Shown here: in pieces, positions 3,864 through 16,803 of the stretch
How positions within the stretch are numbered: position 1 is the first letter of the stretch
Layout of the letters: each line of letters opens with the position of its first letter
Assembly (NCBI GenBank): GCA_050745085.1
Contig: JBOGJB010000140.1
Span: forward strand, 1-35,615
Reading direction: 5' to 3'
DNA length: 35,615 bases
DNA from: Vicinamibacterales bacterium
GTDB lineage: Bacteria > Acidobacteriota > Vicinamibacteria > Vicinamibacterales > 2-12-FULL-66-21
Program-made: the position numbers and the translations under genes
Notes under the pieces: model-generated
Databases searched by the model: none
Seen by the model: only the letters and a program-made list of their open reading frames with translations
Told to the model about the DNA's origin: nothing

Positions 3864-4103
3864 GTGGACGACGACGTCAGGCCGGGCCGCTCGCGAGACC
3901 AGCAATCGACGGGTGTGGTGCGAGAAGTCCTGCCGCACGCGCTGTATCGCGTCGAGCTGGGCAACGGGCACGTCGTCGTGGCACACGCGGCAAGCGGCCG
4001 CGGTCGCAACTTCGTTCGGATTCTCGTCGGCGACTCGGTCTGCGTGGAGTTGTCGCCGGTGGATTTGAACAGAGGACGGATTACGAGGCGGGTAAACAGC
4101 TAA
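3864..4103 (+). CDS. infA: Translation initiation factor IF-1
   Basis: 79-aa [26 protein letters not shown]...[27 protein letters not shown] matches the IF-1 S1 fold. It has a GTG start; the exact start is uncertain. Confidence 0.88.
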
Positions 4104-4208
4104 TGCCGAATGCCGAATGCCAAATGCCGAACGCGTCGCGCTTGCGACGGCGGAACGACCGTTGCGAGCGCAGTCGACTTCGGCCTTCGGCATTGGGCAT
4201 TCGGCATT
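4102..4208 (+). repeat. Heptamer-repeat hairpin B (AATGCCG family): left arm 4102-4136, structured core 4137-4174, right arm 4175-4208 (CGGCATT units)
   Basis: The left arm reads AATGCCG AATGCCG AATGCCA AATGCCG AACGCGT, starting inside the infA TAA. The right arm reads CGGCCTT CGGCATT GGGCATT CGGCATT. An inner 13-bp stem (4138-4150 with 4159-4171) contains two G-U pairs. Confidence 0.93.
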
Positions 4209-5932: not shown

Positions 5933-6033
5933 AATGCCGAATGCCGAACGCCGAAAGGGTCTGCACTCGCGACCGTCGGCGACTGTCGACGAGCGTAGAC
6001 GTTTTCGGCATTCGGTATTCGGCATTCGGCATT
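5933..6033 (+). repeat. Heptamer-repeat hairpin C (AATGCCG family): left arm 5933-5960, core, right arm 6006-6033
   Basis: The left arm reads AATGCCG AATGCCG AACGCCG AAAGGGT. The right arm reads CGGCATT CGGTATT CGGCATT CGGCATT. The core shares GCGAC...GTCGAC strings with the core of element B. The element starts 4 nt after the rpsD TAG. Confidence 0.92.
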
Positions 6034-6063: not shown

Positions 6064-7044
6064 ATGCTGTGGAAAGGTTTCCAGCGGCCGAAGCGGCTGG
6101 AGTTCGAGCGTGAGACGCTTACCGACAGGTTCGGCCGGTTCTACGCGCAGCCGTTTGAGCGCGGGTTCGGAACGACGATCGGGAACGCCCTGCGCCGCGT
6201 GCTGCTGTCCTCGGTCGAGGGAGCGGCGGTCACAGCGGTCAAGATCGAGGGGGTCCTCCACGAGTTCTCCCCGATCCCAGGCGTCGTCGAGGACGCGACC
6301 GACATCATCCTCAACCTGAAGCAGATCCCGCTGAAAATGCACGGCGATCACACGAAGACGCTGTACCTCAAAGCGGAGAAGCCGGGCGTCGTGCGCGCGC
6401 GGGACATCGAGACCGACGCCGACGTCGAGATCCTCGAGCCGGACGCGCACATCGCGACCGTGTCAGAGCACGGCAAGCTGCAGATGGAGATGCGCGTCAA
6501 GCGCGGGCGCGGCTACGTCGCAGCCGACAAGAACTTCGACGAGGACCTCGGCATCGGCTGGATTCCGATCGACTCGGTGCACTCGCCGATCAAGAAGGTC
6601 AACTACCTCGTCGAGGCGGCGCGCCTCGGACAGACCACCGACTACGACAAGCTGACCGTGGACGTCTGGACCAACGGCGCCGTGACGCCGCGTGACGCCG
6701 TGTCGCTCGCGGCCAAGCTGATCCGCGATCACCTGACGATCTTCGTCAACCTCGAGGAAGCGCTCGAGTCGGCGCCGGAGGCGGCCTCCGACACGCCCCG
6801 CGCGGCGCTCAACGAGAACCTCGACAAGAGCGTCGAAGAGCTGGAGCTTTCCGTCCGGTCCTACAACTGCCTCAAGAACGCGAACATCCGGACGATCCGC
6901 GAGCTGGTGCAGAAGACCGAAGGGGAGATGCTCAAGACGAAGAACTTCGGCCGCAAGTCACTGAACGAGATTAAGGAGATCCTGTCGACCATGGGTCTCA
7001 GCCTCGGGATGAGATTGGATCAACCGACTCACGCTCAGGAGTAA
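6064..7044 (+). CDS. rpoA: DNA-directed RNA polymerase subunit alpha
   Basis: ATG at 6064 is preceded by AAAGGAA. The sequence begins [17 protein letters not shown], has an N-terminal assembly domain, and has a C-terminal domain with [23 protein letters not shown] (the HhH of the alpha-CTD). The upstream part of the 409-aa track ORF runs through repeat C and is rejected. Confidence 0.95.
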
Positions 7045-7050
7045 ACGGTA

Positions 7051-7245
7051 AGTTCTTAGTGCTTGGTTCTTAGTGCTTAGTGTGATTTCCCTCGCGACTG
7101 ACTTCGCTGTTGTGGGTCTCGTGTCTTTGCTTGTTTCTTCTGCGTGCGCTGGCGGTGAACGCGACGCGTGGACAGCGAAGATCAATCACCGAAGACGCTG
7201 GCGAGCGAGGTCAGACTAAGCACTAAGAACTAAGCACTAAGAACT
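7051..7245 (+). repeat. Heptamer-repeat hairpin D: 31-bp stem (7051-7081 with 7215-7245) enclosing a 133-nt lower-GC core
   Basis: The left arm is AGTTCTT AGTGCTT GGTTCTT AGTGCTT AGT. The right arm is ACT AAGCACT AAGAACT AAGCACT AAGAACT. I checked it base by base and found 30 Watson-Crick pairs plus one G-U (7065 with 7231). The core has internal pairings CTTCGCTGT/ACAGCGAAG and CCTCGC/GCGAGG. Confidence 0.93.
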
Positions 7246-7258
7246 GTGAGGATCGAGA

Positions 7259-7867
7259 ATGCGTCACGGACGAGCACACAGAAAGCTGGGGCGGGTCGCC
7301 GACCATCGCGTCGCGATGCTCCGGAACCAGGCGCAGGACCTCCTGCGCCACGAGCGGATCCGGACGACGGTGCCGCGCGCGAAGGAGTTGCGGCCGTTCG
7401 TCGAGCGGATCATCACGATCGCCAAGCGAAGCCTCGCGGACGGCGGGATGACCCGCGGCGTCACCGCGCGGCGGCTCGTCGCCCGCGACATCCACGACCG
7501 CGCCGTCGTCGTCAAGCTGTTCGACACGATCGCGCCGCGGTTCGCGGAGCGGCCGGGCGGTTATACGCGGCTCCTCCGCCTCGGCCATCGCCGCGGCGAC
7601 GACGCCGAGGTCGCGCAGATCGAGCTCATCGGGAGCGAGTACAACCCAAGTGCGGCGACCGGGAAGACCGCGGGCGAAGGCGCGGCCCCCGCGAAGACGA
7701 AGGGGGTCGGCGGGCGTCTGCGCGCCGCCGCCGACCGGCTACGCGGCAAGAAGGCCGAGGCGCAGGCGGCGAAGTCCGAAGGTCGGAGGGACGCGGAGCC
7801 CAAGCAGGGCAAGACGCGGGCCACGGCCAAAGGTCCCAAGAAGGCCCGGACGCGCGACGACGAGTAG
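7259..7867 (+). CDS. rplQ: 50S ribosomal protein L17 with ~77-aa Lys/Ala/Gly-rich C-terminal tail
   Basis: 202-aa ORF beginning [53 protein letters not shown] (L17), with GAGGAT upstream. Confidence 0.95.
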
Positions 7868-16730: not shown

Positions 16731-16735
16731 ACGCA

Positions 16736-16803
16736 AGTACGAAGCTCGAAGTACGAAGGCTGAAGTTGGTTCACTTCAGCCTTCGAACTTCGTCCTTCGT
16801 ACT
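16736..16803. repeat. Heptamer-repeat hairpin E between convergent genes: arms 16736-16766 and 16773-16803, 6-nt loop
   Basis: The left arm is AGTACGA AGCTCGA AGTACGA AGGCTGA AGT. 28 of 31 positions pair with the right arm. The right arm encodes the last 10 codons of the minus-strand CRTAC1 gene, and the stop codon (16771-16773) spans the loop-arm junction. Confidence 0.9.

Follow-up and report, generated by a model that had tools for sequence, protein, structure and literature searches.

A species-specific foldback repeat in the rpoA-rplQ spacer of a Vicinamibacterales bacterium and its probable relation to PF05635 cassettes

In this study, we found that the DNA between rpoA and rplQ at positions 7051-7245 of a Vicinamibacterales contig is one copy of a species-specific, non-coding dispersed foldback repeat with an unconstrained middle. 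The source is a metagenome-assembled genome (MAG) of Vicinamibacterales bacterium (GCA_050745085.1, hereafter G000; 606 contigs, 4.06 Mb, 82% complete), and the window is the whole stretch analysed here, positions 1-35,615 of contig JBOGJB010000140.1. Judged from their sequence, the arms of this family share the design of the PF05635 cassette ends known from 23S rRNA intervening sequences (IVSs), and the element is probably (about 60% by our own estimate) a gene-less miniature of such a PF05635 hairpin cassette. The original prediction had proposed an L17 autoregulatory leader, an embedded small RNA or cargo carried by a heptamer element. For this locus the result is corrective: it holds no new L17 leader, and region 7051-7245 should therefore not be annotated as regulatory RNA.

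Anatomy of the element between rpoA and rplQ

The element starts 6 nt after the stop codon of rpoA (6064-7044, plus strand as all features of this locus; 326 aa in the ORF list, 96-98% identical to rpoA of the same genus) and is followed by rplQ, which encodes L17 (ORF at 7259-7867, 202 aa) and is present in 37 of 41 relatives. Its left arm (7051-7081), the outer part of the terminal inverted repeat (TIR), consists of 4.4 tandem heptamers in which AGTTCTT and AGTGCTT alternate, one unit being GGTTCTT (TRF period 7/14). The right arm (7215-7245) is composed of inverse heptamers, ACTAAGC and ACTAAGA alternating, as seen both by TRF and in the fold. The predicted 31-bp stem is real: the two arms (GC 0.387) pair at 31 of 31 positions through 30 Watson-Crick pairs and a single G-U pair, which is formed by G7065 and T7231 in RNA of the plus strand. 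The stem is near-perfect because both arms of this copy happen to lie near the family consensus.

The 223-nt region 7040-7262 is predicted to form a single long hairpin with a folding energy of -107.9 kcal/mol (z = -8.29), and none of 200 shuffled sequences was as stable. Both predicted inner pairings are present, that of CTTCGCTGT (7102-7110) with ACAGCGAAG (7172-7180) and that of CCTCGC (7090-7095) with GCGAGG (7205-7210), and the enclosed 133 nt are indeed lower in GC (0.586 versus 0.676 for the genome) and rich in T (42% in the left half). The description of these 133 nt as a structured core did not hold, since folded alone they have a shuffle-like z of -1.27, and the middle 76 nt a z of -1.0. 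Nor is the core one unit, as its outer 28 nt on each side belong to the conserved TIR of the family. The left subterminal motif (7082-7109, ~28 nt) is a diverged copy of a family motif containing GACTKCRCTCGCSAC (nhmmer, 24.3 bits), and its inverse copy lies at 7186-7214 (21.8 bits, minus strand). The TIR profile matches the left end at 7050-7109 with 61.2 bits and the right end at 7246-7186 with 61.5 bits. Among 34 copies, this one has the second best matched heptamer arms and ranks 30th in left/right agreement of the motif part. What remains is a variable middle of 76 nt (7110-7185, GC 0.57), resembling that of a single other copy, G000:C128:3332-3578 (BLAST, 72% over 74 nt). The total length of this copy is 197 nt.

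The Shine-Dalgarno (SD) sequence of rplQ is GAGGA at 7248-7252; two bases separate it from the stem, and six from the ATG at 7259. GAGGAT occupies 7248-7253 and not 7247-7252 as predicted. By sequence comparison, this SD belongs to the end of an ancestral AAGGATC-type spacer and not to the element: the string (A)AGGATC(G)AGA(T) is also found 5' of rplQ in two genomes of the same genus (G003 and G002) and in many relatives that have other hairpins.

A dispersed family with conserved ends and variable middles

When the core was searched against G000 by BLAST, many loci were matched, by its two ends only. Members of the family have a common layout of four heptamers (AGTTCTT/AGTGCTT), a ~28-nt motif with GACTKCRCTCGCSAC, a variable middle, the inverse motif and the inverse heptamers, with sharply defined termini, (GTC)AGTTC...GAACT(GAC). 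A profile of the ~62-nt TIR detected at least 34 paired copies, 109-605 nt long with middles of 3-484 nt, as well as 18 unpaired or degraded ends. The junction pattern gave 63 matches in G000 versus 0 for the reversed control, and the 15-nt motif GACTKCRCTCGCSAC gave 131 versus 6, relatives being at the level of the control. Nearly all arms have four units with precise ends, that is, they do not show the free variation in copy number that marks slippage; unit number does vary in other families of G000, such as the 16 units found at 867-978.

Side by side with these regular copies, at G000:C231:2992-3689 (L068) a ~30-nt subterminal motif is tandemly amplified, with 3-4 copies on the left and 2-3 inverse copies on the right, so that the duplications are roughly mirrored between the arms. 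A long variant of ~860 nt without convincing ORF or Rfam match is located between family-type arms at G000:C317:2927-3784 (L066), and its inner sequence is shared by the contig end C526:13070. Single genes are often bracketed by same-family hairpins on both sides (G000:C159:1008-2582, C189, C266 and C307), which suggests local spread or conversion between neighbouring spacers.

The middles could not be aligned across the family. They form small unrelated subfamilies, one ~95-nt middle being common to six copies, and even in this six-member subfamily the identity is 60% (0.60) for the middles versus 76% (0.76) for the ends. Middles of 21 members had a mean fold z of -0.08, no better than shuffles. 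The core as a conserved module was also considered and rejected: only the C128 copy is similar, and the middles belong to small unrelated subfamilies. The remaining middle of the element is variable and apparently functionless.

An embedded small RNA or small protein gene within the 133-nt core is very improbable. Such a gene could account for the lowered GC content and for a 48-codon ORF with a hydrophobic start (7073-7219), but the middle is neither conserved among copies nor structured, the 48-aa product has no Pfam match, and two separate 1-nt deletions fall inside the ORF in strain contigs. A scan of 6800-7500 for sigma-70 promoters and intrinsic terminators revealed no consensus within the element; in particular, there is no terminator-like site with a GC-rich stem and a T run, the arms having a GC content of 0.39. 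Rfam gave no match at the gathering threshold in the window and only noise at E <= 10 for 6990-7300, nor was any match obtained for three other family members scanned. In one metatranscriptome the element had zero depth, which is uninformative as to transcription. Of the three readings first proposed, cargo carried by a heptamer element came closest, in that the element is heptamer-armed, yet the conserved terminal repeat makes up half of what was taken for cargo.

Arm pairing was then compared within and between elements for the 34 copies. Left/right complementarity was 0.812 in both cases (p = 0.53), with 0.847 within versus 0.850 between elements for the heptamer part and 0.771 versus 0.761 for the motif part. 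Compensatory changes thus do not preserve the pairing, and each end drifts independently around the consensus; this absence of arm covariation is a new observation. Independent drift is expected if the sequence is recognised or if copies merely decay. Considering that the ends are conserved as sequence while the arms do not covary, protein recognition appears to be favoured over structure alone. In addition, no RNA-strand signature was observed in 81 co-directional hairpins (sense fold stabler in 47, antisense in 34; p = 0.18-0.29), and the lack of both covariation and sense-strand bias is more easily reconciled with a selfish DNA repeat than with a selected RNA.

The same two results weigh against a host-selected RNA hairpin, in which a strong rpoA-rplQ stem would tune the operon (by mRNA processing, protection of the rpoA 3' end or uncoupling of rplQ translation) and its repeat nature would be secondary. 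We regard this explanation, which is compatible with a selfish origin and does not exclude it, as rather unlikely although it deserves some weight. Part of this weight comes from genomic context. Seventeen family members were placed, with 9 between convergent genes, 7 in co-directional and none in divergent contexts, and all inverted pairs of G000 show the same preference for the downstream side of genes (40 convergent versus 10 divergent, against a background of 486 versus 435). The median distance between a hairpin edge and the stop codon upstream of it is 3 nt, and ~99% of the gap is filled in convergent spacers; as gene calls were crude with over-extended starts, stop-side distances alone are trusted here.

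Species restriction and turnover at orthologous spacers

Independent copies of the locus were found in metagenomes. In two soil runs that belong to different studies, contigs span the locus from rpoA through the element into rplQ at ~95% identity. The element shows small indels in them: the left subterminal motif has lost 3 nt at 7097, and the middle lacks single nucleotides at 7140 and 7178. Metagenome depth over the terminal repeats is 20-50 times that over the middle, and loose contig ends of low consensus accumulate exactly at 7051 and at 7245/7246, which at 7245/7246 implies many different flanks. The bridging contigs, depth and loose ends together indicate that the element is no assembly artefact, that it ends at 7051 and 7245 as originally predicted, and that its ends are multi-copy in those samples.

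On the other hand, the family is narrowly distributed. The junction pattern had 0 matches in 400 other genomes of the order (146 genera) and none in the genome contig and metagenome contig collections, and the full TIR was absent from 40 relatives by BLAST. A search with the exact 28-nt AGTTCTT/AGTGCTT arm retrieved 23 metagenome loci (L070-L092) in organisms whose GC content ranges from 37 to 66%; several of the loci are hairpins with a short loop, and several belong to one assembly (Ga0207147 contigs). The subterminal motif of G000 occurs in none of these 23 loci. Thus, sharing of the word alone, across organisms of such different GC content and without the motif, may be convergent. We also noticed that the arm word is low in GC (0.39) and foreign to a host of 0.68 GC, which could mean either horizontal spread or a constraint on the word.

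To follow the spacer itself, rpoA and rplQ were located in 29 relatives, which are not independent samples. The sequence of the window element is present in the rpoA-rplQ spacer of none of the 29. In the same genus, two genomes (G001 and G004; L003 and L004, near position 1500) read TAA-C-ATG, i.e. they have a 1-nt spacer, and their rplQ SD (CAGGAG) is contained in the final codons of rpoA. The spacer can thus be dispensed with altogether, its AAGGATC-type SD included. Two further genomes of the genus, G003 and G002, have spacers of 87 and 73 nt with unrelated hairpins built from GGGACTA-type and GGGCCTG-type words, respectively, and the arm word of G003 recurs in at least 34 further places of its own genome. 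More generally, the spacer is shorter than 40 nt in nine relatives, and in ~8-13 of the 29 it holds a period-7 hairpin with a different word each, ending a few nt before the AAGGATC-type SD. For four other copies of the family, the orthologous spacers in four same-genus genomes are empty (11-22 nt) or contain unrelated repeats. This is a new observation of family turnover at fixed spacers, which, judged by sequence, is complete between species of one genus while the spacers stay occupied. In the orthologues of the G000:C159 spacers (L037-L044), the same-genus genomes carry another dispersed intergenic repeat of ~70-100 nt, which contains GCGCGCCGAGCG...GGGGTGGGGCCCC, at the places where the AGTGCTT element resides in G000.

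These data dispose of the L17 leader, in which L17 would bind a structured RNA and repress its own translation. Position directly upstream of the rplQ SD is the one point in its favour, and it is almost certainly wrong: the element is missing from the spacer in all 29 relatives, the spacer is reduced to 1 nt in two same-genus genomes, the same unit adjoins at least 34 unrelated genes in G000 (with 9 of 17 copies between convergent genes), and neither arm covariation nor an Rfam match was found. The 1-nt spacers together with the unrelated heptamer hairpins in the same genus rule it out. The comparison of rpoA-rplQ spacers that had been suggested along with the leader revealed no conservation and no covariation, with the spacer absent in close relatives.

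The bearing of the spacers on a host-selected hairpin is more divided. The frequent occupancy of this spacer (~8-13 of 29 relatives, the hairpin always ending a few nt before the SD) hints at a role at the host level that a purely selfish reading does not explain, and in the window four spacers of the operon carry hairpins of this kind. However, two same-genus genomes dispense with the spacer and keep the SD inside rpoA, and from one species to the next the site holds an entirely different sequence.

Heptamer words, PF05635 cassettes and known repeat systems

Tandem heptamers are by no means limited to the window family, which is part of a broader class of heptamer-armed hairpins occupying intergenic spacers in this order. 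G000 contains 728 period-7 arrays of at least three units, versus 17 for period 5, 65 for period 8 and 56 for period 10. They use 107 different heptamer words and form 162 adjacent inverted pairs, including 7051-7081 with 7215-7245. The window itself has four more such hairpins on the plus strand: one armed with GTCCTTG/AAGGACT in the rplO-secY spacer (815-978, with a 16-unit right arm at 867-978), two of an AATGCCG family in the infA-rpmJ (4102-4208) and rpsD-rpoA (5933-6033) spacers, and one of an AAGTACG family between convergent genes (16735-16803). The sister element at 4102-4208 has the related inner motif GACTGCGCTCGC, and a motif of this type is also present in the second AATGCCG element. 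As both AATGCCG elements and the rplQ element contain a GACTGCGCTCGC-type motif, one motif serves families with different words. Such a modular end, in which heptamers are combined with a motif common to families using different words, is a new feature.

The link to PF05635 comes from gene-bearing versions of these arrays. There are eight PF05635 genes above the cut-off and one remnant in G000, and 8 of these 9 lie between inverted tandem-word arrays with a different word each; 7 of 1227 short called genes are bracketed in this way. The words concerned are those of abundant gene-less families, and most of the abundant words of the genome (AATGCCG, AAGTACG, TAGGCAC, GGCACGA, TTCAGGG, CAGAATC and AGGAGGC) have one gene-bearing copy each. 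The C192 cassette is laid out like the window element but uses a different word: both of its ends combine four AATGCCG units with the GACTKCRCTCGCSAC motif. The junctions at these ends are found again at 62 and 44 further loci, and the encoded protein has matches to PDB 2RLD and to TIGR02436 ('four helix bundle protein'). In the two closed same-genus genomes (G001 and G004), all four PF05635 genes inspected are likewise bracketed, by 7- or 9-nt words. Moreover, on the metagenome contig L089 a PF05635 gene (95.7 bits) is enclosed by AGTTCTT/AGTGCTT arms on one side and the inverse words on the other. The traits of the window family are split among gene-bearing copies, the GACTKCRCTCGCSAC motif and four-unit layout being found on C192 with another heptamer, and the same heptamer on L089 without the motif; no gene-bearing copy in G000 combines the two. 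The sharing of end sequences or heptamer words by gene-bearing and gene-less families of one genome, as read from these sequences, is new; our literature searches found no paper tying heptamer repeats to PF05635 cassettes, except for the heptamers within the Coxiella IVS.

A PF05635 copy with exactly the ends of the window family was not found in G000, which is weak evidence as the MAG is 82% complete and in 606 contigs, and tblastn detected no remnant of a PF05635 ORF in any middle of the family. With no such ORF in its 76-nt middle, the element could only be a gene-less derivative and not a full IVS-like member. Other small called genes are also situated within inverted arrays of the same word (G000:C23:2412-2573, C36:1021-1335, C54:2868-3086 and C331:43-492); they are not PF05635 hits and may be different cargo or miscalled ORFs.

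If the element is a gene-less miniature of this kind, its full-size relatives would be the ~500-nt cassettes with a PF05635 four-helix-bundle gene in the loop, from which it may have been derived or together with which it may have been mobilised, possibly with PF05635 proteins taking part in the spread. It would have been copied into the rpoA-rplQ spacer, or have replaced an older hairpin there, just upstream of the retained ribosome-binding site of rplQ. There, it would presumably be co-transcribed with the alpha operon. A 31-bp RNA duplex is a textbook substrate of RNase III, whose gene is present in G000. Once transcribed, the stem would probably be cut by this enzyme, by analogy with the 28-bp stem of Coxiella, so that the rpoA and rplQ messages would be split and half-stems left at the new ends.

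A broader and quite speculative extension, to which we assign little likelihood, is that hairpins and PF05635 cassettes form one system, in which every variant of the four-helix-bundle protein would be specific for one heptamer word and would propagate or preserve gene-less copies that RNase III would excise from operon mRNAs. Such a pairing of words with proteins, if true, would explain why words are species-specific while sites like rpoA-rplQ stay occupied. If the PF05635 link holds, it would provide a function for a large orphan protein family and tie rRNA intervening sequences to a widespread type of intergenic repeat.

Could the family instead be an ordinary MITE, i.e. a deletion derivative of a DDE-type insertion sequence that is moved in trans and unrelated to PF05635 cassettes? 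Its small non-coding copies (109-605 nt) with ~62-nt inverted ends, of which 34 are paired and dispersed, would look much the same, as would ends conserved without covariation, variable middles and restriction to one species. We nevertheless consider a MITE distinctly unlikely. No transposase was found between or beside family ends in this 82%-complete MAG, and the unpaired ends adjoin degraded partners or ordinary genes. No direct repeat was present in the flanks of 17 copies, so that a target-site duplication was not seen, although the empty sites of relatives are too diverged to settle this point; the GTC...GAC flanks are inverted and are thus part of the element rather than a target duplication. 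Tandem-heptamer ends, furthermore, are the hallmark of PF05635 cassettes in G000 and are not known from any IS family. A search for an autonomous transposase copy led only to long-range inverted pairs that proved to be neighbouring hairpins around ordinary genes.

Small non-coding, multi-copy intergenic MITEs that are co-transcribed with their neighbours and form long hairpins are well known, such as Correia/NEMIS of Neisseria, ERIC, BOX and RUP. Their inverted ends are unique sequences, and cognate transposases are known or suspected for some of them; Correia hairpins have been reported as RNase III substrates, and Correia elements make a TA duplication. The window family differs from all of these in having tandem heptamers as ends, and no TA duplication was seen.

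REP/REPIN elements moved by the RAYT (Y1 transposase) of the genome are similar in being species-specific, paired inverted intergenic repeats that persist downstream of genes, and G000 does have one Y1_Tnp gene. However, a REP/REPIN origin is highly improbable, given that the family has neither REP anatomy (a short palindromic unit) nor a GTAG-type tag, and that the Y1_Tnp gene is bracketed by a different, classical REP palindrome, GTGG(C/T)ACGAGGCTTTAGCCTCGT, with ~20 loci of its own. This single RAYT-like gene, with its REPs in inverted orientation, is at G000:C395:5430-6075 (L053). The REP stem contains the word ACGAGGC, which also builds 37 heptamer arrays.

Ribosomal protein leaders, including the Rfam L17 downstream element, resemble the window element only in their proximity to a ribosomal protein gene; the latter lacks conservation at orthologous sites, covariation and an Rfam match.

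An excess of heptamer repeats and convergent heptamer pairs have been published for Xanthomonas and noted for cyanobacteria (PMC4692102; PMC4679880). In X. campestris and X. axonopodis, inverted pairs of GGGAATC heptamer arrays amount to 70-75 per genome (Rehm et al., 2015, PMC4692102). As in G000, the Xanthomonas pairs and cyanobacterial STRRs are tandem intergenic heptamers, often in convergent pairs able to form stem-loops, that stay in the same places in related species but differ there in length and sequence. In contrast to the single G-rich, quadruplex-prone word of Xanthomonas with its variable copy number, 107 words are used in G000, and the window family is nearly fixed at four units per arm, has a conserved subterminal motif and is devoid of G-tracts. 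Beyond the rplQ locus, G000 is informative on heptamer-repeat hairpins, a class that has lacked an explanation since its description in cyanobacteria (STRRs) and in Xanthomonas.

The closest comparison is with the 23S rRNA IVS that carries an S23p/PF05635 ORF. The IVS of Coxiella burnetii is 428 nt long, with a 28-bp terminal stem and two to three GACAGAT units whose number varies between strains; RNase III cuts have been shown in mid-stem, and doubt was expressed that its PF05635-type protein is even made (PMC4990558). Unlike this IVS, the window element is located in an mRNA spacer and not in 23S rRNA, has no ORF or detectable remnant, and belongs to a family that has an extra ~28-nt subterminal motif and numbers at least 34 copies in G000 alone; RNase III cleavage, shown for the Coxiella IVS, would here be expected by analogy. 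Both are regarded as selfish, with no known mechanism of mobility, and both have tandem heptamers within a long terminal stem of inverted ends, 28 bp in Coxiella and 31 bp in the window.
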